A program made the position numbers and the translations under genes. Below the pieces are notes generated by a model, which was given only the letters and a program-made list of their open reading frames with translations, was not told the origin of the DNA and did not search any database. A DNA stretch of 32,000 bases, from assembly GCA_042566265.1 (NCBI GenBank), contig JBHOMX010000025.1:80749-112748 (forward strand), in the 5' to 3' direction. Of the stretch, positions 2,728 to 27,498 are shown in pieces. The stretch comes from Candidatus Brachytrichaceae bacterium NZ_4S206 (lineage in GTDB: Bacteria; Chloroflexota; Anaerolineae; J036; Brachytrichaceae). Within the stretch, counting starts at the first letter, position 1, and each line of letters starts with the position of its first letter.

Positions 2728-2891
2728 GCGTTATTACCTCAGCGGGGAATTGTCTCATAAATGACGTTGGTGGTAGGCTCACTTCGCCGTAGTGTGGCAG
2801 TCGAAGGGAGATAGAGCAATCGAACGGAAGGTGTGCGCTGCATCGCCTTACAATCCCCGATGATTCGCGCAATCGAAGCGGGAGGTTGAAA

Positions 2892-4037
2892 ATGACGATG
2901 AGTCGTTCGAACCATGGGTCCCCGCGCGTTCGCCCTCGCATCGCAGCCCTCGCGGTGACGTTGATCATGAGCGTCGCATTTGCGACGATGTTCGCTTCTC
3001 TGTCGCCTGCGCCGGCGACGGCAGCCGGCTCTGCGCAGGCATGTGTGCCGACGCTGCGCGCCGTGGGGAACGTGCCCATCCGCTTTGGGCCCGGGCCGCA
3101 ATACCGGCCGCCCATCGGGACATTACGGCCCGGCCAGCAGGTGCAGGTGACCGGCCGGCTGCGCAACAACACCTGGTATCGCATCTCCTACGATGGGCAA
3201 GAAGGTTGGGTATTCCGGGCGTTCGTCCGGACGACGTGCATCCACAACGCGCCGGTCGTGCCGCCCTTCCCCGTGAATGAGCCGCGCTTCCGCGCCGACG
3301 CGATGCTCATCGCACCCGGCCAGTGCACGACGCTGCGCTGGAACATTGACAACGTGGCGGCGGTGTTTCTGATCAGCGACGGCGTCACGCAGGGCGTGGC
3401 CGGCAACGACGCGCGCCAAGTGTGCCCGACGACCACGACGACCTACATCCTGCGCGTGCAGCGCCGCGACGGCTCGATCTTCGACACGCCGCTGACGATC
3501 ACCGTTGCGCCGGCGACGCCGATCGCCCAACCGAACTTCCGTGCCGACGCCTACACGATCAGCCCCGGCCAATGCACCACGCTGCGCTGGAATGTGGAAG
3601 GGGTGAACGCGGTGTTCTTCTGGGACGGCAACGTGCGCCAAGGAGTGGAGGGCGTCGGCTCCAAGCAGGTATGCCCAGCGACGACCACGAAGTATCGCCT
3701 GCAAGTGTTCCCGCGCACCGGCGGCTCGACGGACTACTTCGTCACGGTCGTGGTGGCAGGCGCACCGGCGCCGGGGATTACGTTCACGGTGGACAACGGC
3801 AGCATCGTGCGCGGCCAGTGCACCACGCTGCGCTGGAACGTGACCGGAGCATTCAACGCCGTGTTCCTGTTGGACTCGTCGGCCAACACCACCAGCCAGG
3901 TGGGTGCCAGCGCTGCAATCACCGTGTGCCCACAGGTGAACGCCACGTACACGCTGCGCGTCATCGGCACAGACGGCCGGCTGTTCGATCAGTCGGTCAG
4001 CGTGAACGTGGCGCAGTTCCCGACGCCGATGCCATGA
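2892..4037 (+). CDS. Secreted protein with SH3b-like domain and three tandem ~83-aa repeats of unknown function
   Basis: GGGAGG lies 6 nt before ATG 2892 (track starts at TTG 2886). Signal peptide RIAALAVTLIMSVAFATMFASLSPAPATAAG. SH3b-like segment NNTWYRISYDGQEGWVFRAFV. Three repeats each carry GQCTTLRWN and VCP..T.Y.L; the nucleotide motif recurs at about 3316, 3564 and 3813. Confidence 0.8.
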   Translation: MTMSRSNHGSPRVRPRIAALAVTLIMSVAFATMFASLSPAPATAAGSAQACVPTLRAVGNVPIRFGPGPQYRPPIGTLRPGQQVQVTGRLRNNTWYRISYDGQEGWVFRAFVRTTCIHNAPVVPPFPVNEPRFRADAMLIAPGQCTTLRWNIDNVAAVFLISDGVTQGVAGNDARQVCPTTTTTYILRVQRRDGSIFDTPLTITVAPATPIAQPNFRADAYTISPGQCTTLRWNVEGVNAVFFWDGNVRQGVEGVGSKQVCPATTTKYRLQVFPRTGGSTDYFVTVVVAGAPAPGITFTVDNGSIVRGQCTTLRWNVTGAFNAVFLLDSSANTTSQVGASAAITVCPQVNATYTLRVIGTDGRLFDQSVSVNVAQFPTPMP

Positions 4038-6578: not shown

Positions 6579-8073
6579 ATGAGCAACCCACTTGGCTTGC
6601 GTCGCGTGATTACGGCGCTCGCATCACTGGCCGTGGTCGCCGCCTCTGAAATGTCGGGCGTTGCGCAAGAGCCGATGCCGCCCGAGGCGCAATATACGCC
6701 CAGAACGCAACTGGACCTCAATCTGCCGATGCTACAGCTGTCGCCAGCGCGTGGGTGACGCCGCTGGTTCTGGACTTCGGCCGGTCGGCGTCGGGTTCAC
6801 CAGCGCAGTGCAGACCGTTTCGATCACCAACACCGGGACGACGACATTGACGAACTTCGCCGGCGGTGCGCCGCTCGATACACAGTTCCTGGCCTCGCAA
6901 AATTGCGCGGGTGGCGTAGCGCCCGGCGCGAGCTGCAAATACTTCTTCAGCTTCAAACCTACGGCGGTCGGCACGTTCACGACCACATCCAACTCCTCGA
7001 CCAATGCCGGCAACATCGTGATCACCTTGCGCGGCACAGGTGTGGGCGCCGGCCTACATGTGACGCCGCTGTCGTTTGATTTCCATCGCGTGGTCAGCGG
7101 GACGACCAGCCCCAATCAGATCGCCACCATTCGCAACACCGGCGCGACGACATTGACAAACTTCACCGGCGGCGCGCCGTTCGATACGCAGTTCGGCGCG
7201 TTTCAGAACTGCGCTGGCGGAGTAGCGCCCGGCGCGAGCTGCCAGCATGTCTTCCACTTCACACCGACGGCGGCGGGCACGTTCACCACCACCTCGAACT
7301 CATCCACCAGCGCCGGGCCGTTCGTCATCACCTTGCGCGGCACAGGGGTGGGGGCCAGCTTCTATGCCTCGCCGCTGTCGCTCGACTTCGGCTACGTGCC
7401 GGTGGGCAACACCAGCCCGCCGCAAGTCGTGACGATCACGAACACTGGCCCGATCACGCTGACGAACTTCGCCGGCGGCGCGCCGTTCGATACACGGTTC
7501 AACGCGACGCAAAACTGCGTCGGAGGCGTCCCGCCGGGCGGGAGCTGCAAATACACCTTCACCTTCAAGCCGAACGCGCTTGGGCGATTCACCAGCACTT
7601 CCAGTTCCAGCACCAACGGCGGGCCGCTCGTCATTCAACTCGCGGGTGGCGTGGCCCCACCGACGATTAGCATGGACTTCTCGCCGGCAAGTGTTGCGGT
7701 GGGCGAGGTGACAACCCTGCGCTATACCATCACCAACACGAATGCCGCTTTGGCCGCGACTAGCGTTGGGTTGAACAACGCGTTGCCCGCTGGCTTGAAG
7801 GTGGCGTCGCCCAGCGGCGCGACCGCTTCGCCGGAGTGCAATTCGCCTACCATTACCTCTGTGCCCGGCGGCGGCAGCATCGTCGTGACAGACGGCGCGA
7901 TCACGGGAGGCAAGGCATGTGTCATCACCGTGCAGGTGAAGCCGGAGGTGGCCGGAGACTTGGTCAACGCCGTCGCTGTAAGTTCGGTGAACGGCGGCAC
8001 AGGCAACACCGCTACGGCGACGCTGGTTGTGCGACACAAGGTGAGGCTGCCCATCGTGGTGCGCCAGACGTAG
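6579..8073 (+). pseudogene. Secreted surface protein with three choice-of-anchor-D-like domains and a DUF11-like C-terminal domain; N-terminus broken by two frame changes
   Basis: Signal peptide in frame 0 (ATG 6579, GGGAG 6 nt upstream): MSNPLGLRRVITALASLAVVAASE...LQLSPA, stop at 6756. The first repeat start WVTPLVLDFG is readable only in a second frame (6752-6781). The rest, PVGVGFTSAVQTVSITNTG..., lies in the third frame (6781-8073). Repeats 2 and 3 (HVTPLSFDFHRV..IATIRNTG and YASPLSLDFGYV..VVTITNTG) show what repeat 1 should look like. Confidence 0.6.
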
Positions 8074-13951: not shown

Positions 13952-15217
13952 ATGAACCCCGATCTGCGTGAGCGATTGCGGCGGCTGGGCGTGCACAAGG
14001 GCGCCGCGCAGCTCAAGCCATCGCGGCCGGCGCCGCAACCGGATCACGGCGGCGCGCTGGCGCGCGCGCAACTCGAACCACTGCGCACCCCGTTCGGCTA
14101 TGCCTACGTGAGCCGATCGGCATATGCGCTGGCACATCGCCATGGCGATCGCACCCTCGACGCTGCGCTGCGCTATGCGCCGGAGTTGCTCGCCCGGCTG
14201 ATCTCAGGACGCGCCGCTGTTGAGGTGGACCTGCGCCAGGCGCTGTTCCTCGACACCGAGACGACCGGCCTGAACGGCGGCGCCGGCACGTTCGCCTTTC
14301 TGGTCGGCCTGGGGTATTTCGACGACGAGCGCTTCGTCGTCGAGCAGTTCTTCCTGCGCGACCCGGCCGAGGAGGCCGCGATGCTATGCGAGGTGAACCG
14401 GCGCGTCTATGACCGGCAGCACATCGTCACGTTCAACGGCCAGGCCTTCGACGTGCCGCTGCTGGAGTCGCGCTTCATCCTCTCGCGCATCACGCCGCCT
14501 TTCGCCGGCAAGCATCACCTCGACCTGCTGTTGCCGGCCCGGCGCGTCTGGCGCGGCAGCCTGGACTCGTGCAGCTTGGGCTCGCTCGAGTTTCACCTGC
14601 TCGGCGTGCGGCGCGAGCAGCGCGACGTGCCCGGCGCAGTCATCCCGTTCCTGTATCGCGAATATCTGGCTGCCGGCGGCGGTGACCTGAACGAGGACAT
14701 GCAGCGCGTGATGTATCACAACCTGAACGACATCCTCTCGATGGTCGCGCTGGTGGCGCGCCTGGCGGACGCACTCACGCAGCCGCAGGATGCCGCCGAG
14801 CACTTCAACGCAGCCCGATTCTATGAGCGCGCGGGCGACTACGCCGCCGCCGAGCGCGGCTATCGCGCAGCAGTTGGGCAATTGGGGATTGAGAGACTGG
14901 AGATAGAAGATTTGTCCAATCTCCAATCTCTAATCTCTGATCTCCCGCTTGCCTCCCTGCGGCATGTCGCGCGCTTCATGAAGCGCCGTGGGCATCTGGA
15001 AGAGGCGCTGGCCATCTGGCAACGTTTGGCGGAATCGGACGATGTCGAAGGCTTGATCGAGATCGCCAAGCACTACGAGTGGCGCGCGTGCGATCCCGAT
15101 CGCGCGCTGGCCTACGCGCGACGTGCGCTGCGGGCAAGTGCCAACTCAGCGCTGCGCGAGGCGATCGCGCATCGGATCGCGCGGCTGGAGCACAAGGCAC
15201 TTCGATCCAAAGCGTAA
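13952..15217 (+). CDS. RNase H-like (YprB-type) exonuclease-fold domain protein with helical-repeat C-terminus
   Basis: ALFLDTETTGLNGGAGTFAFLVGLGYF and IVTFNGQAFDVPLLESRF fit the RNase_H_2/YprB-type DEDD-like fold. The C-terminal half is helical and TPR-like. Confidence 0.65.
   Translation: MNPDLRERLRRLGVHKGAAQLKPSRPAPQPDHGGALARAQLEPLRTPFGYAYVSRSAYALAHRHGDRTLDAALRYAPELLARLISGRAAVEVDLRQALFLDTETTGLNGGAGTFAFLVGLGYFDDERFVVEQFFLRDPAEEAAMLCEVNRRVYDRQHIVTFNGQAFDVPLLESRFILSRITPPFAGKHHLDLLLPARRVWRGSLDSCSLGSLEFHLLGVRREQRDVPGAVIPFLYREYLAAGGGDLNEDMQRVMYHNLNDILSMVALVARLADALTQPQDAAEHFNAARFYERAGDYAAAERGYRAAVGQLGIERLEIEDLSNLQSLISDLPLASLRHVARFMKRRGHLEEALAIWQRLAESDDVEGLIEIAKHYEWRACDPDRALAYARRALRASANSALREAIAHRIARLEHKALRSKA
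14884..14946. repeat. 63-nt imperfect palindromic element (ATTGAGA-type) inside the RNase H-like CDS, in frame
   Basis: GGGGATTGAGAGACTGGAGAT agaagatttgtcca ATCTCCAATCTCTAATCTCTGATCTCCC. The arms pair (GGAGAT/ATCTCC, GATTGAGAGA/TCTCTAATC). It is translated as GIERLEIEDLSNLQSLISDLP and is locally AT-rich relative to the gene. Confidence 0.6.
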
Positions 15218-15342
15218 AGGCGCGTTCCGTTGAGGATCGTTGTTGAGAAGATAGTCGGAGGTTTGAGCGCCTGTGCATCTCCCGGTCGCGGCACGATGCT
15301 GTCCGCCGAGATGAAGCGAGCCAGTTTGTCGCGAGCAACGCT
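15196..15342 (-). pseudogene. Eroded third RHS core-tail remnant (no toxin domain)
   Basis: The minus strand reads SVARDKLARFISADSIVPRPGDAQAL (15342-15265). After a 1-nt frame slip it reads SDYLLNNDP (15259-15233). Compare the intact tails LARFISADTIVPDPANPQALNRSAYVLNNPLRYTDPSGH and KRFISPDSIVQAPSDPQTLNRYSYTRNNPLRYVDPSGH. Extension to 15196 (PLRFGSK) is tentative. Confidence 0.5.
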
Positions 15343-15361
15343 TTACATCAGCGGAACTATG

Positions 15362-15937
15362 TCAAACGCAAGAAGGCCTCCCTATATCAAAGATGTCAAC
15401 CTGTCGTCTCTCAAGTAACTCCTCAAACTGGTCGGTCCCTTTATCTTGGAGATACTGATACTCAGATAATGAGATCAAACAAGCCAAGTAGACTCGACCT
15501 AATTTCGAGTTGCAAATTAGTTCTCCAAAACCTTCGGAAAGTCCGAATGGCTGAGCAAAGTAAATAGCCTGTTTCCCGAATTGTTGAGCGAATTCAGGAG
15601 AGATATTCTTGATACCACTCACAGCCGTTCCTCTATGTAACACCAGCCGATTTTCGACCATATAGAACAAGGCATTGGCTAGCAAAAAAGGAATATGTGC
15701 CCATCCAACACTCGCCGGCAGAATCACCTCTGCCAAATTAGCAACAGCGTCTTCGTACAGAGACAACCCGAGAGAGCAAAATGCACGACATCCTGAAAAG
15801 ACGTTGTCGAAAGTCAAGATTTGTATGCATTGCGCCCCCTCATCCTCTGGACAAAACACCTGATGATCAATCGGCTCTGAGCCTAGATGTAAAACGAAGT
15901 GATCGAAATAGCATAAACCCAATTGTTTCTCATTCAT
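15362..15937 (-). CDS. SUFU-like immunity protein (cognate to the upstream GH-E nuclease module)
   Basis: Start ATG 15937 overlaps the toxin stop (CATGAATGA; 8-nt overlap). 191 aa. The layout fits bacterial suppressor-of-fused-like immunity proteins: QILTFDNVFSGCRAFCSLGLS, ...VYLACLISLSEYQYLQDKGTDQFEELLERRQVDIFDIGRPS. The track ORF (to 16114) adds 59 implausible codons that overlap the toxin. Confidence 0.65.
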   Translation of the reverse strand: MNEKQLGLCYFDHFVLHLGSEPIDHQVFCPEDEGAQCIQILTFDNVFSGCRAFCSLGLSLYEDAVANLAEVILPASVGWAHIPFLLANALFYMVENRLVLHRGTAVSGIKNISPEFAQQFGKQAIYFAQPFGLSEGFGELICNSKLGRVYLACLISLSEYQYLQDKGTDQFEELLERRQVDIFDIGRPSCV

Positions 15938-16785
15938 GCCTCTCCCTTTGCTCAAATTTCTTACTACGGTTGCAGGACGGACATTGCGCTCTAAGTTTTG
16001 ACACGTCGTTGAATTCATCAAGCACCTGCTTGCGCGTCCAACCAAATATGTTGACGATTCTATCTCGCCAGGGCGGGGTGTGATCCAAGTCTGGCTTCGC
16101 CATTGGTTGTCCACAAGTTGGGCAGATCATTTCTCCGCGATCATTTCGTTGAGCTTTAGATTCAACTGCCTCACGTATCCCTTGTCTGAAATGACGTGGC
16201 CGCTTCGTTACACTTCCGCTTTCATCCTGCACTGTCAACAGTCCGCCAATCTGCAGCGTCGCGCTGCCCTGTAGCGGCGTGGTGAGCTGCAACCCGCCGC
16301 TCTCCCCCGGCCAGCAGGTATCCGCTGCCGGCCCCTACGCCCCGCACCGGCCCCAGCGGGTAGCCCAGCGCCGGCGCAGGGTCAATCTGCGGCCCGGATC
16401 CCGCCGTGTGGGTTGCTATCGGGCCGGCAACGTCCAGCGGATTGGTCAGGAAATCAATCCGCGGCGGTGGCGTGGTTGCGTAGTAAATCGCACCAGCGGC
16501 GAGCAGACCCAAGCCCGAGACCGCACACACCGGGGTAACCGGCGGCACGAAGCAGTGTCCACTCGGATCAACGTAGCGCAGCGGATTGTTTCTTGTATAG
16601 CTGTAGCGGTTGAGCGTTTGCGGGTCGCTCGGCGCTTGCACAATGCTGTCCGGCGAGATGAAGCGCTTGCGGCCCAAATGGGCTGTGCCAGCAGCGGCAA
16701 GGAGTAGCGCGCGTTGTGTTACCCTAAGTGCAGGCATGCCGCCCGCCTTGAGCAGCACTAGCTCGTCACCAAGGACGTTGCCGGC
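15930..16785 (-). pseudogene. Orphan RHS C-terminal module 2: RHS core tail + GH-E-type HNH/EndoVII nuclease toxin domain, interrupted by a +1 frameshift
   Basis: The frame opens right after the TAG of the upstream immunity gene. It reads RKRFISPDSIVQAPSDPQTLNRYSYTRNNPLRYVDPSGH (RHS core end), followed by a hydrophobic/Gly-Pro linker. After a frame change (most simply at the G5 run, C5 on plus strand 16304-16308) it reads RPRHFRQGIREAVESKAQRNDRGEMICPTCGQPMAKPDLDHTPPW...LDEFNDVSKLRAQCPSCNRSKK, which matches the GH-E nuclease pattern as I recall it. No upstream RHS repeats. Confidence 0.7.
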
Positions 16786-17121
16786 CTAGACAGCTCCGTT
16801 TGTTAATCCTCGCCAATTCGTGTCACAAAGCTCTATGTATCTAGAATCGAAAAACTCTTCTATTCCGCATATTTCACATTCGCATCCTCTCCCCTCCTCA
16901 TCTTGAAAGACCAACCCCGTAACCAAAATCGGCTTCCTTTCAACTGCGTCGAGTATGAGACTTACTAAGTCCTCATCCGGATAGTATGTGGCGTCACCAA
17001 ACCACACGGCCACTCTCCACGACGATTCACTGCATGGATCGCCCTCTACAATCTCCCACTCTACAGGGACTGTTCTACGAAACTTTCCGAGTTCAAACAC
17101 CAGAATGCCCTTTCGCGACAT
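16786..17121 (-). CDS. Putative immunity protein for RHS module 1 (no recognisable family)
   Basis: ATG 17121 has AAGGAG 10 nt upstream. An alternative TTG at 17154 overlaps the toxin stop (TTGA). Intact 111-aa ORF MSRKGILVFELGKF..., AT-richer than the surroundings, positioned directly after a toxin module. Confidence 0.55.
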   Translation of the reverse strand: MSRKGILVFELGKFRRTVPVEWEIVEGDPCSESSWRVAVWFGDATYYPDEDLVSLILDAVERKPILVTGLVFQDEEGRGCECEICGIEEFFDSRYIELCDTNWRGLTNGAV

Positions 17122-17150
17122 AGCAACACGACTCCTTGTGGTGCTTGTGG

Positions 17151-18099
17151 TCAAGGTGCCGATACTATTCCAGTCAAGGAGACAACCGTATTCGATTCGC
17201 GCAGCGTAATCGAGACACCTAGGTTCGGAGTAGTGTATTCGTAAGATAGCTTAAGCACTTCATGCGTAGTCGCCCAGCGCACCGGAACTGGATCTGTTCC
17301 TGCTAAAGCATGAACCACTAAGCTTCGGTTGTTGGTGGCATAAATAGCGCCATCTTCTAAATTCGTGAAGCGGCCACTATAGCCCTTCTCGTGCGTCCTC
17401 GTTGGTCATGAGTTCATATCGGAAGTCTTCTGAAACACTCTCACGGGCAAAGCGTCAGGACTCAGCTGACCACTCTTGATTCGATCAGCTACATCGAACA
17501 CGCTTTGATTAGCGAAGGGGCCTTTTGATCCGAAGTTCTCGGATGCAGAGTCCTGCGTCCAGCGAATTGTTGAACGTGGTAAAGCTTGAGGGCGAGGAGC
17601 CGGCAGCTGCGGCGCATTGGCCGATTTGGGCGCGGGCAATTGTCGCGATGGCGGAGTGTATCTTGGCGCGCCGTAATTGACATATTCCCCCGAAAGCGGG
17701 ATTAAAAACGATGTTGCCCCCGCCTTCTATGTAGGGTTTGCAGTTGATTCGCAGGCAGCGCGGATCACCTTGCTGCTGAGGCTTATGCCCACTCGGATCG
17801 GTGTAGCGCAGCGGGTTGTTCAGGACATACGCAGACCGGTTCAGCGCCTGCGGGTTGGCGGGATCAGGAACGATGGTATCCGCGCTGATGAACCGCGCCA
17901 GCAGCGGCGAATACATCCGCGCGTTGCCGGAGCGCAGCAGAGGTCCCCGCAGGGGATAGTCATAGAGGCCGACACTGCCTTCCAAACGCTGGCCGGCAGC
18001 TACGTCCCGCGTGAGCGCAGCGAACAGCGGGATGAACTGCCGGTCGGTCGGCCAGGTGCCAGCGCTCCGAGGGCTATAGCTTGTTCGTAAGAAGCTGCG
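17151..18099 (-). pseudogene. Orphan RHS C-terminal module 1: RHS core tail + uncharacterised toxin domain, disrupted by a +1 frameshift and an in-frame TGA
   Basis: Open from 18099. It reads ...GLYDYPLRGPLLRSGNARMYSPLLARFISADTIVPDPANPQALNRSAYVLNNPLRYTDPSGH. A frame change follows at one of two G5 runs (plus-strand C5 at 17717-17721 or 17687-17691). Next come a Pro-rich linker (YGAPRYTPPSRQLPAPKSANAPQLPAPRPQALP) and STIRWTQDSASENF..SVFDVADRIKSGQLSPDALPVRVFQKTSDMNS. TGA at 17406-17408 is followed in the same frame by PTRTHEKGYSGRFTNLEDGAIYATNNRSLVVHALAGTDPVPVRWATTHEV..., ending at TGA 17151-17153. Confidence 0.65.
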
Positions 18100-18114
18100 T
18101 CACATAAGAGATAC

Positions 18115-18468
18115 TTAGCCTGCAAAGTACTGCCCGAATCGTCGTATAAGCTCTTCCTGCTCTTTGTTGGGTTGCCATTTGCCCTCTCGGATCAGTCTGT
18201 CTATGTCGCAGGCAGCACCTCGATAAGCTTTCGCTCGGATCACTTCATGGATAGCTCGTAAGGCCGCGACCTCTCCTGTGAGCATGAGCATGTCCTCCAG
18301 CGTTAGCCTTTCATCGAGTGCGATCAGCTCAGATATGAGTCGCTTGGCTTCCTCATATCGGTCTTCAGATGCTAGCCTCTCAAGGCGTTCTAGCAGAGTG
18401 AACAATCGAGGATCCTGCCGCTGCTCGAATTGGCGCTTCATCCATTCCACATATGCTTTGTCGTCCAT
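18115..18468 (-). CDS. Hypothetical 117-aa all-helical acidic protein (possible orphan immunity protein)
   Basis: Intact ORF MDDKAYVEWMKRQFEQRQDPRLFTLLERLERLASEDRYEEAKRLISELIALDERL... with AGAGG/GAGGG upstream. It is the first gene of the AT-richer island and ends 13 nt before the frame that carries RHS module 1. Confidence 0.55.
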   Translation of the reverse strand: MDDKAYVEWMKRQFEQRQDPRLFTLLERLERLASEDRYEEAKRLISELIALDERLTLEDMLMLTGEVAALRAIHEVIRAKAYRGAACDIDRLIREGKWQPNKEQEELIRRFGQYFAG

Positions 18469-18850
18469 GGACCCTCACGCCTCTTTATGGACCCAACAAA
18501 CTCACTGTGTCTACATATACACTCATCATTCGCTCATTTTTAAGGTGTTTTCTCGGATTTGCGACACCCATATATGCCGGTTTCCTAGTTATCAACCACT
18601 ACATACAGACAAGCCGCGAATTGCCGTGGTACCCAGACTGCCGCGCCAATCGCCGGGTTGCCAGGAATTGGGCAAAATGGTCTGGCTGATGTTGACCAAA
18701 TCACGAGCTGTTCTAGTGTAAGGCCCTATGATGTTTCGCGAGTTGAGAAACTTTTTGTGAATGTCTTTTGCTAATCGAGCCGGTGCATCGTCGAATTTGC
18801 GATGACTGGCCCGAAAGCAGCGAAGATGCTGCCCAAAGCGTCGTCCGCAA

Positions 18851-19903
18851 CTACCCGACGACCCGCGCCGCCTCCGGCGCGAAGCTGATCGTCACGGTAT
18901 CGCCGGCGTGGGGCGGGGTGAAATTGGGGTTATTCAGCGCGTCGGCAACGAACGCCGAGCCGTTCACGCTCAACTGCACGCGCACGATCGAGCCGAGGAA
19001 GGTGACACCTTCCACCCGCGCGGTCAGCCGGTTGTCGCCAGGCGCCGCACCGTTCAAGGCGATCGTCTCCGGGCGCAGGGCAATCGTCACAGCATCGCCG
19101 GGGCGCTTATCGGCGAGCGGCTGACCGAGCCGCACCGGCTGGCCGCCCACTATCACGCAGCCGTCAGCGCCGGCGACACCGCGCAGCGTGCTGAGCGTGC
19201 CGACGAAGCGGGCGACGAACTCAGTCTGCGGCCGGTTGTAGATCTCGAACGGCGCGCCGACCTGCTCGATACGCCCGGCATTCATCACCACGATCCGATC
19301 GGAGAGCGCCAGCGCCTCTTCCTGGTCGTGCGTGACGTAGATGGTGGTGATGTGCAGCGCTTGCTGAATGCGCCGGATCTCGTTGCGCAGCTCGTCGCGG
19401 ATTTTGGCGTCGAGCGCCGAGAGCGGCTCGTCGAGCAGCAGCACGCGCGGCTGGATAGCCAGCGCACGTGCCAGCGCTACACGCTGCTGCTGGCCGCCGG
19501 AGAGCTGATGGCTATAGCGCTTGCCATAGCCCTGCATCTGGATCAACGCGAGCATCTCTTCCACACGTCGTCGGATCACTTCGGCCGGCGCCTTCGCCAT
19601 GCGCAAGCCGAAGGCGATGTTGTCGGCCACTGTCATGTTGGGGAAGAGCGCATAGGACTGGAAGACCATGCCCAGTCGGCGCTTGTTAGGCGGCGTGTCG
19701 GTCACATCCTCGCCATCAATGCGAATTCGGCCTTCGGTGGGCTGCTCGAAGCCGGCGATCATGCGCAGCGTGGTCGTTTTGCCGCAACCACTGGGGCCAA
19801 GGAACGAGACGAACTCGCCCTGCTCGACGTCCAGGTCGAACGACTCGACGGCGGTCGTCGTGCCGAACACCTTGCGCAGGTGGATCAATTCGAGATAGGC
19901 CAT
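18851..19903 (-). CDS. ABC importer ATP-binding protein (PotA/FbpC-like)
   Basis: Walker A GPSGCGKTT, signature LSGGQQQRVALARAL, Walker B LLLDEPLSALD, and a C-terminal TOBE-like regulatory domain. Confidence 0.9.
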   Translation of the reverse strand: MAYLELIHLRKVFGTTTAVESFDLDVEQGEFVSFLGPSGCGKTTTLRMIAGFEQPTEGRIRIDGEDVTDTPPNKRRLGMVFQSYALFPNMTVADNIAFGLRMAKAPAEVIRRRVEEMLALIQMQGYGKRYSHQLSGGQQQRVALARALAIQPRVLLLDEPLSALDAKIRDELRNEIRRIQQALHITTIYVTHDQEEALALSDRIVVMNAGRIEQVGAPFEIYNRPQTEFVARFVGTLSTLRGVAGADGCVIVGGQPVRLGQPLADKRPGDAVTIALRPETIALNGAAPGDNRLTARVEGVTFLGSIVRVQLSVNGSAFVADALNNPNFTPPHAGDTVTISFAPEAARVVG

Positions 19904-23857: not shown

Positions 23858-23940
23858 GAAATTGAAATGCAGAATTGAAAATTGAAAAGGACGGTTGTCC
23901 CCTTCTGCTTTTCAAATTTTCAATTCTCAATTCTCAATTC
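23858..23940. repeat. AATTGA(G/A)A-type palindromic element between the PPIase gene and murI
   Basis: GAAATTGAAATGCAGAATTGAAAATTGAAAAGGacggttgtccCCTTCTGCTTTTCAAATTTTCAATTCTCAATTCTCAATTC. The arms AGAATTGAAAATTGAAAAGG and CCTTCTGCTTTTCAAATTTTCAATTCT pair. The reverse complement of 23921-23940 is GAATTGAGAATTGAGAATTG, matching the lon-internal copy. Confidence 0.75.
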
Positions 23941-24799: not shown

Positions 24800-27391
<2,592 letters not shown>

Positions 27392-27413
27392 AAATTTAGG
27401 AGGGCTGGTTTTA

Positions 27414-27485
27414 CTGGGGCGGCTGGATTCGAACCAACGAATGGCGGATCCAAAGTCCGCTGCCTTACCACTTGGCGACGCCCCA
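27414..27485 (-). tRNA. tRNA-Gln (anticodon UUG), CCA not encoded
   Basis: The reverse complement is UGGGGCG UC GCC AAGUGGUAA GGC A GCGGA CUUUGGA UCCGC CAUUC GUUGG UUCGAAU CCAGC CGCCCCA G. This gives a 7-bp acceptor stem, a 5-bp anticodon stem, loop CU-UUG-GA and a T-arm with UUCGAAU. It is very similar to E. coli tRNA-Gln as I recall it. Confidence 0.9.
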
Positions 27486-27498
27486 ATCCGCAAACAGC

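Follow-up and report, generated by a model that had tools for sequence, protein, structure and literature searches.

Textbook accounts of the Rhs and contact-dependent growth inhibition (CDI) loci of Proteobacteria include orphan toxin/immunity cassettes. The locus described here raises the question of how such cassettes came to stand, with no full-length rhs gene beside them, in a member of the Chloroflexota, and what they might still do there. It occupies positions 15218-18850 of a 32,000-nucleotide stretch of contig JBHOMX010000025.1 from Candidatus Brachytrichaceae bacterium NZ_4S206, a stretch that we call the window throughout, and lies between an RNase H-like gene and an ABC ATPase gene. 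An earlier note on this DNA, made from the letters alone, had read the locus as an AT-rich island of displaced RHS toxin tips with their immunity genes. We find it likely that the island represents one half, the one nearer the RNase H gene, of a chromosomal orphan rhs-CT/rhsI array that is conserved in the lineage and made up of relics of C-terminal displacement. It gives a well-documented example of orphan cassettes from the filamentous, little-studied Chloroflexota.

Core-end fragments, toxin tips and immunity genes

What marks the island as an rhs derivative is a set of three core-end fragments, here called tails. The core-end motif NNPLRY(T/V)DPSGH can be read directly in translation, except in tail 3, which is recognizable from its DNA alone, and a check against the RHS-core profile hidden Markov model (HMM) TIGR03696 placed tails 1 and 2 above the cutoff, with no match for tail 3. 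Phmmer searches with P0306 and P0309, full-length RHS proteins of Candidatus Roseilinea (2042 and 2092 aa), gave matches confined to residues ~1733-1960, the last ~75-135 residues of the core plus the linker, and found no RHS shell sequence elsewhere in the window. The largest RHS-like open reading frame (ORF) of the window has 196 codons, and a continuous YD-repeat shell (>1000 aa) and an N-terminal trafficking domain are absent. For the tail ORFs, gene callers could choose starts only among arbitrary GTG and TTG codons; the three small ORFs of the island, orf117, orf111 and Imm-SUFU, have each kept an ATG start with a Shine-Dalgarno motif. Core-end fragments that carry a toxin tip and an immunity gene without a shell are what the displaced-tip reading had proposed, and on this point the earlier note was right.

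Base composition follows the same division. The island has a G+C content of 0.534, against 0.607-0.661 in all other 3.6-kb segments of the window (n=211), so its AT-richness, first judged by eye, is borne out by the sliding profile. The dip is a mosaic in which the RHS tails are host-like (0.66) and the toxin and immunity modules lie at 0.44-0.53, the classic rhs pattern of core against tip. Each cassette joins a core-end fragment of host G+C content, a possible recombination handle, to a low-G+C toxin domain and a small immunity gene. The minus strand carries every gene of the island, as had been claimed, and the stop codon of the ABC ATPase gene at 18851 forms its upper edge; the RNase H-like gene (13952-15217), which had been assigned to the same strand, is on the plus strand.

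Cassette 1 begins with RHS tail 1 (17785-18100), a 5'-truncated core end ending NNPLRYTDPSGH that is supported by TIGR03696 (E = 1.9e-11, 44.3 bits against a cutoff of 32.5, profile positions 34-76) and by phmmer (P0306 residues 1733-1807, E = 2e-27). It starts ~100 residues before DPSGH, further upstream than the 30-60 residues first given for every tail, and carries two in-frame insertions relative to P0306 and P0309. Pre-toxin linker 1 (17600-17784) contains a frameshift, evident from a comparison of frames: tail 1 is in frame 2 and toxin 1 in frame 0, and the toxin frame opens only past a TAG at 17727-17729. The candidate slip sites are two runs of five G (G5), at 17687-17691 and 17717-17721. 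Within toxin 1 (17151-17599), an in-frame TGA at 17406-17408 replaces the Trp of a KTPEMDxWP motif that is present in most aligned homologues; a single G-to-A change, from TGG to TGA, would explain this stop.

The toxin-1 domain belongs to a family of at least 102 homologues after clustering at 50%, found by exhaustive HMMER search, and is C-terminal in all of them. The proteins that carry it range from a 3566-aa RHS protein and short RHS-tail proteins to PT-HINT proteins and Fil_haemagg proteins with PT-TG. This invariable C-terminal position on RHS, PT-HINT and haemagglutinin/PT-TG proteins indicates a genuine polymorphic-toxin domain, with no match in Pfam, NCBIfam or PDB sequences. A word-indexed protein search with the domain returned nothing, a result that is no evidence of absence since the search also missed a 62%-identical homologue. 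P0007, considered as a further homologue, was rejected, as it matches the tail only and carries Ntox10.

By hhalign, the family aligns with the C-terminal toxin of the full-length RHS protein P0309 at 98.8% probability, and a ~27-residue insertion (KTPEMDxWP...NLENG) sets the two apart. An AlphaFold2 model of toxin 1 built on the family alignment reached a predicted local distance difference test score (pLDDT) of 95.9, and the top eight PDB matches of that model in Foldseek were all ParB, KorB, Spo0J, PadC or Atu1540, at weak scores (best probability 0.97, E 0.03, TM 0.42). On the strength of the model, we provisionally call toxin 1 a ParB-fold toxin. Family members share the motifs IRx[ST]Q plus NNR[GS] or DNRR, with the double Arg in some members only. 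The provisional ParB-type fold may be shared with Tox-ParB/ParBL1 (Zhang et al. 2012, PMC3482391), and the N-terminal IRxxQ plus the NNR/DNRR motif may correspond to the conserved [ST] ... [NT][RT][RT] of those toxins, from which the toxin-1 family differs in the ~27-residue insertion and in having no Pfam model.

Behind toxin 1 lies orf111 (16786-17121), an intact 111-aa ORF with an ATG start and an AAGGAG Shine-Dalgarno motif that matches no described Imm family. Its homologue is the ORF directly downstream of the toxin-1 homologue P0123 on an unrelated contig (L053), with 36% identity over 81 aa by blastp (E = 7e-12) and a phmmer E of 2.3e-8 among 7431 ORFs. This homology identifies orf111 as a member of the cognate immunity family of toxin 1. 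The toxin family, provisionally of ParB fold, is widespread on RHS, HINT and haemagglutinin toxins. Pfam has no model for it or for its ~110-aa immunity partner, and sequence searches lead to no solved structure of either.

Cassette 2 repeats the arrangement with a known pair. Tail 2 (16555-16785) is a decayed core end ending NNPLRYVDPSGH, supported by TIGR03696 (E = 1.6e-8, 34.9 bits, profile positions 43-76) and by phmmer (P0309 residues 1825-1960, E = 4e-34); its 5' part has a 20-nt insertion, visible in DNA alignment A1, and an in-frame stop, seen in translation. Pre-toxin linker 2 (16293-16554) is 55% identical over 163 aa, across the corrected frameshift, to the linker of P0309, the product of the full-length rhs gene KatS3mg053_2578, and beyond the linker the two toxins differ. 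The frameshift, a +1 G, is pinned to a G5 run at 16304-16308, and removing one G gives a continuous 284-aa tail-linker-GH-E ORF. HMM checks confirmed both domains named from the letters, with near-full profile coverage: toxin 2 (15930-16292) is a GH-E (HNH/EndoVII) nuclease domain (PF14410, E = 2.7e-13, 50.7 bits against a gathering cutoff of 25, profile 2-68 of 68), and the intact 191-aa gene behind it (15362-15937) is Imm-SUFU (PF05076, E = 2.1e-13, 51.0 bits against a gathering cutoff of 25, profile 2-172 of 172). The stop codon of the toxin overlaps the Imm-SUFU start (ATGAATGA), and the 191-aa ORF is also called independently in Logan assemblies.

The Tox-GH-E/Imm-SuFu association is catalogued among the toxin modules and polyimmunity loci of Zhang et al. 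(2012, PMC3482391), who recorded both partners in Chloroflexi. The Chloroflexota background assumed for the island is correct, but the remark that no description from such a background was known is overstated in view of this catalogue entry, and short RHS-tail/toxin ORFs are common in metagenome-assembled genomes (MAGs) of Chloroflexota.

Broken toxins beside intact immunity genes, as first reported for this island, thus resolve into two frameshifts and one TGA, with the immunity ORFs open. Could these lesions be sequencing or assembly errors, and the orphan toxin ORFs truly intact? The located frameshift and both candidate sites of the other are G5 homopolymer runs, where such errors are commonest. 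However, the island is 100% identical in three JGI metagenomes (3300044995, 3300020567 and 3300044994) and in several independent Logan short-read assemblies of SRA data, so that the same lesions recur in at least six independent assemblies with every lesion site spanned, and the TGA is a substitution that no homopolymer error would produce. This identity across independent assemblies indicates that the frameshifts and the stop are genuine, and we regard an artefact as extremely improbable.

At the RNase H end of the island, tail 3 (15225-15345) is an eroded, terminal core-end remnant that runs up against the RNase H-like gene and overlaps its 3' end. It was recognized by its membership of a three-copy 56-nt direct-repeat family (D2) and by DNA alignment A1. 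Tail 3 is 79-80% identical to the terminal tails beside the RNase H gene in locus L018 and in the Roseilinea genome AP024676 (L055), and by this comparison it is ancestral to the lineage and the old end of the array.

At the opposite end stand orf117 (18115-18468) and a 382-nt spacer (18469-18850, G+C 0.495) without a convincing ORF. The 117-aa product of orf117 has an ATG start and a Shine-Dalgarno-like motif and found no match in Pfam, NCBIfam or PADLOC at cutoff, with a sub-threshold match to hemerythrin (E 0.011). A single-sequence AlphaFold2 model is all helical (pLDDT 64) and had no significant Foldseek match, and no homologue was found in related arrays; we treat orf117 as a candidate orphan immunity gene only. 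The spacer has no match in Pfam or Rfam and no similarity to related loci, which leaves the idea that it is the decayed 3' end of a toxin without support from any of these, and no promoter or terminator was found in it above shuffle expectation. Between the ABC ATPase gene and orf117, the scan turned up nothing that resembles an intrinsic terminator.

History of the array

The closest relatives by gene identity belong to Candidatus Roseilinea (RNase H 88%, Lpd 97%, MR_MLE 96%). In the complete Roseilinea genome AP024676, a single array separates the RNase H gene from an MR_MLE gene of the enolase family. In the present organism, a second array half is found on the same 815-kb contig (Ga0484949_000003), ~200 kb away and in the opposite orientation (L012 4700-12800). 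In this half, five RHS tails each lead into a toxin ORF that is free of interruptions, with small candidate immunity ORFs behind; its toxins comprise an Ntox8 with DUF2750/Imm and four without assignment. A piece of RHS shell, 313 aa long, lies there too and shows 80% identity to full-length RHS proteins of Roseilinea.

The window can be aligned collinearly with a sister Roseilinea MAG (L060) as far as 18851, precisely the stop codon of the ABC ATPase gene. In that MAG, a 352-aa gene comes 34 nt behind the ABC ATPase gene. In the present contig this 352-aa gene flanks the far end of the second array half, and each of the two genes is joined to one half of the orphan array. The single array of AP024676, the second half on the same contig and the collinearity of L060 together show that an ancestral array was split by a ~209-kb inversion, with breakpoints at window 18850/18851, L012 15343/15344 and L060 11053-11088. 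Of the two original breakpoints, one fell within the array and one shortly after the end of the ABC ATPase gene. The comparison of synteny replaces the earlier picture of an island inserted between the RNase H and ABC genes: the junction was made by inversion through an array that already existed, and the inversion set this half directly downstream of the ABC transporter operon, in the same orientation. A large inversion can, in other words, cut an orphan array in two. An HTH_5 regulator and a heavy-metal P-type ATPase (L012 12897-15321) stand at one junction and are absent from the sister locus; before the inversion, orf117 lay downstream of this pair.

The contents of the array have changed faster than its position. 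The cassettes of the AP024676 array and those of the window are completely different, and the terminal tail is orthologous; such a difference between close relatives implies fast cassette turnover. An array of this kind can lose its connection to the parental gene and still occupy the same chromosomal site in different species, even as its cassettes are replaced completely. Incoming cassettes would enter by recombination within the conserved tails, and a single hybrid tail in L018, with a tail-1-like 5' end and a tail-3-like 3' end, is what such a route leads one to expect.

Indel-marked tail subtypes recur in both halves and in sister genomes, at window 18095-17785 and ~16700-16660, L012 11217-11439 and 4880-5017, L018 11399-11630, L054 and L055 10016-10189. 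Compared with functional core ends, subtype A tails have gained IPLFAALTRDVAA and PLRGPLLRSG as two in-frame insertions, and subtype B tails have the 20-nt insertion (AGTAHLGRK). The recurrence suggests that cassettes are copied between orphan arrays, bypassing a working rhs gene. In AP024676, an identical 314-aa orphan tail-toxin protein (P0003) occurs in two arrays 170 kb apart, at ~2.48 and 2.65 Mb (L054 and L055). Transposase genes are found within or beside two orphan arrays of this genome, that of L055 and the one that follows the full-length rhs gene of L056.

A parental type of gene is absent locally and present in a sister genome. No full-length rhs gene occurs in the window, nor in the 10 kb that flank each array half on either side, and to this extent the reported lack of a parent holds; it does not extend to the sister genome AP024676, which has two full-length DUF6443-RHS genes, KatS3mg053_3862 (2042 aa) and KatS3mg053_2578 (2092 aa). 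The former lies ~1.75 Mb from the AP024676 array and has orphans of its own downstream, and the latter has the tail-2 linker joined to a different toxin. Exact 31-mer scans of metagenome and genome contig collections that do not include this organism gave no second copy of tail 1, and nothing matched in a plasmid collection. With the 313-aa shell fragment as query, only proteins shorter than 550 aa were returned, although RHS proteins of 2009-2092 aa are in the same collection, so that absence from its results is uninformative. Logan members of a full-length RHS cluster were rejected as belonging to this organism, since they come from other samples. Breaks in the Logan contigs at 17814 and 17940 were likewise rejected as a sign of a parental rhs gene: they are explained by 31-mers common to the tails of the second orphan array and those of a co-occurring relative, and tail 1 does share 31-mers with the tails of the second array (L012).

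Another possibility is that the cassettes form a silent toxin reservoir, kept for recombination onto a full-length rhs gene, in which slips in the G runs could revert. The tails of the window are 82-92% identical to those of the other half over stretches of 110-220 nt, deletion of one G opens the tail-to-toxin frame of cassette 2, and the sister genome shows the tail-2 linker on a full-length gene with another toxin; a reservoir role was itself proposed for orphan modules by Poole et al. (2011, PMC3150448). Toxin 1, however, would need two independent repairs, and tails 1 and 2 both carry insertions relative to functional core ends, the 20 nt of tail 2 being frame-breaking. Nor was a full-length rhs gene found in this organism, by searches unable to exclude one. 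We consider a reservoir unlikely, and return to the reading of the island as half of an orphan array left by displacement.

Possible roles of the immunity genes

What, then, can the island still make? The toxins are inferred not to be produced, since their tails have neither start codon nor shell and both carry inactivating lesions, which would leave the small proteins as the sole possible products. If the island is active at all today, the products of orf111 and Imm-SUFU, and possibly orf117, would neutralize matching RHS or other polymorphic toxins delivered by neighbours, and their genes may be transcribed by read-through from the co-oriented ABC operon; no activity other than such protection seems plausible. 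An orphan cdiI gene in Escherichia coli EC93 is expressed and protective (Poole et al. 2011, PMC3150448).

The island could instead be a purely neutral relic, immunity genes included, whose small ORFs are intact because they are short and lesions are few. Several observations bear on this, and some of them also weigh against our own reading. All three lesions fall in the toxins (1.8 kb) and none in the immunity genes (0.9-1.3 kb), a placement expected by chance, from length alone, with p = 0.20-0.29. No close orthologues of the immunity genes were found, and orf117, without a link to any toxin and formerly behind the metal-ATPase pair, may not belong to the system. The claim that selection acts only on the immunity genes has to be withdrawn, given these p values and given that all five toxin ORFs of the other half are uninterrupted as well; a broken toxin beside an intact immunity gene is no proof of selection without a test.

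Neutral decay also accommodates the visible erosion of tails 2 and 3, the lack of a promoter-like site above shuffle expectation, and cassettes that differ wholly between sister species and are hence short-lived. It fits less well with three small ORFs that all keep their ATG and Shine-Dalgarno motif, with an Imm-SUFU that spans the full Pfam profile, and with the EC93 precedent. A neutral relic is in our view a substantial possibility, though not one that we favour as an account of the whole island; as between a protective role and pure neutral decay, our assessment would put the two at about even, and selection on the immunity genes is plausible.

Relation to known arrays

Among described systems, the orphan rhs-CT/rhsI modules of enterobacteria come closest (the Dickeya dadantii rhsC locus and Yersinia pseudotuberculosis, PMC3150448; Salmonella Typhimurium, PMC7043789). 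There, as here, the core end is kept to DPxG without initiation signals, a variable toxin follows and then a small immunity gene with its own start, in-frame stops occur in some of the retained core sequence, and the orphan tips are related to the tips of full-length genes in other genomes. The island has every structural feature of these modules except linkage to a full-length gene. Unlike them, its array is not downstream of a full-length rhs gene, the one located in the sister genome being ~1.75 Mb off; its site is conserved across species, both toxins of this half are inactivated, and the host is a member of the Chloroflexota. The parental families differ too, with a DUF6443 N-terminus in the one case and a PAAR/VgrG-linked type VI secretion system (T6SS) context in the other. 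From the full-length DUF6443-RHS proteins of Roseilinea, with which it shares the core-end sequence, the island differs in keeping only the last 75-135 core residues, with no YD shell and no N-terminal domain.

The array also resembles the module arrays of Vibrio cholerae T6SS loci (Kirchberger et al. 2017, PMC5361080), in which modules recombine at a conserved upstream segment and leave old immunity genes behind. The Vibrio arrays stay attached to an active T6SS auxiliary cluster, whereas the one described here is detached and split by an inversion.

A likeness to the acquired interbacterial defence (AID) islands of Bacteroidales had also been suggested. The AID-1, AID-2 and recombinase-associated rAID-1 systems likewise have clustered orphan immunity genes with skewed G+C content, some of them beside pseudogenized remnants, and their proposed benefit is protection from the toxins of neighbours (Ross et al., 10.1101/471110). 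As a functional analogy the comparison stands. It fails structurally: AID systems lie on mobile elements or have a 5' XerD-like recombinase with integron-like repeats, and contain immunity genes only (10.1101/471110), whereas the island has neither recombinase nor mobile element, keeps its RHS tails and toxin remnants, with its two assignable immunity genes interleaved among the latter, and holds a vertically conserved position across species.

These differences bear on a further explanation, that a mobile immunity island of AID or rAID type was inserted between the RNase H gene and the ABC operon. Low G+C content against the flanks and several unrelated immunity genes in a row would be expected of such an element. 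Pfam-annotated gene content shows no recombinase or transposase within 10 kb either side, and the borders lack an integrase and a tRNA, the only tRNA of the window being at 27413; apart from the RHS tails, no repeats are present. Remnants of the toxins have been kept together with those tails, the RNase H-side border and the terminal tail are kept in two other species, and the ABC-side border is a breakpoint of the inversion rather than an insertion site. An inserted element is therefore very improbable, and the reading as one half of a vertically inherited orphan array stands.

Read more boldly, the Roseilinea arrays would survive speciation events at a constant chromosomal position, over 1 Mb away from any full-length rhs gene, swap cassettes by way of 'dead' tails that are incompetent to form a shell, and serve as recombinase-free poly-immunity islands, an rhs-derived counterpart of AID that became expressible here after inversion behind the ABC operon. 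We offer this as a speculation that is rather unlikely. The island leaves the understanding of orphan rhs systems as it was; what it adds is a toxin/immunity pair absent from Pfam and a clear evolutionary history.

Elsewhere in the window, three tandem direct repeats of ~306 nt, 61-76% identical, occupy 6792-7695 inside an ORF at 6661-8073, and three repeats of ~250 nt occupy 3311-3862 inside an ORF at 2886-4037; both ORFs probably encode repeat-domain surface proteins. An AT-rich motif, AATTTTCAATTCTCAATTCTCAATT, stands out in this GC-rich genome by its inverted copies within and near the region of the Lon protease gene, at 23914-23940, 25949-25974 and 27372-27397, and one copy adjoins the tRNA-Gln gene at 27413-27486.

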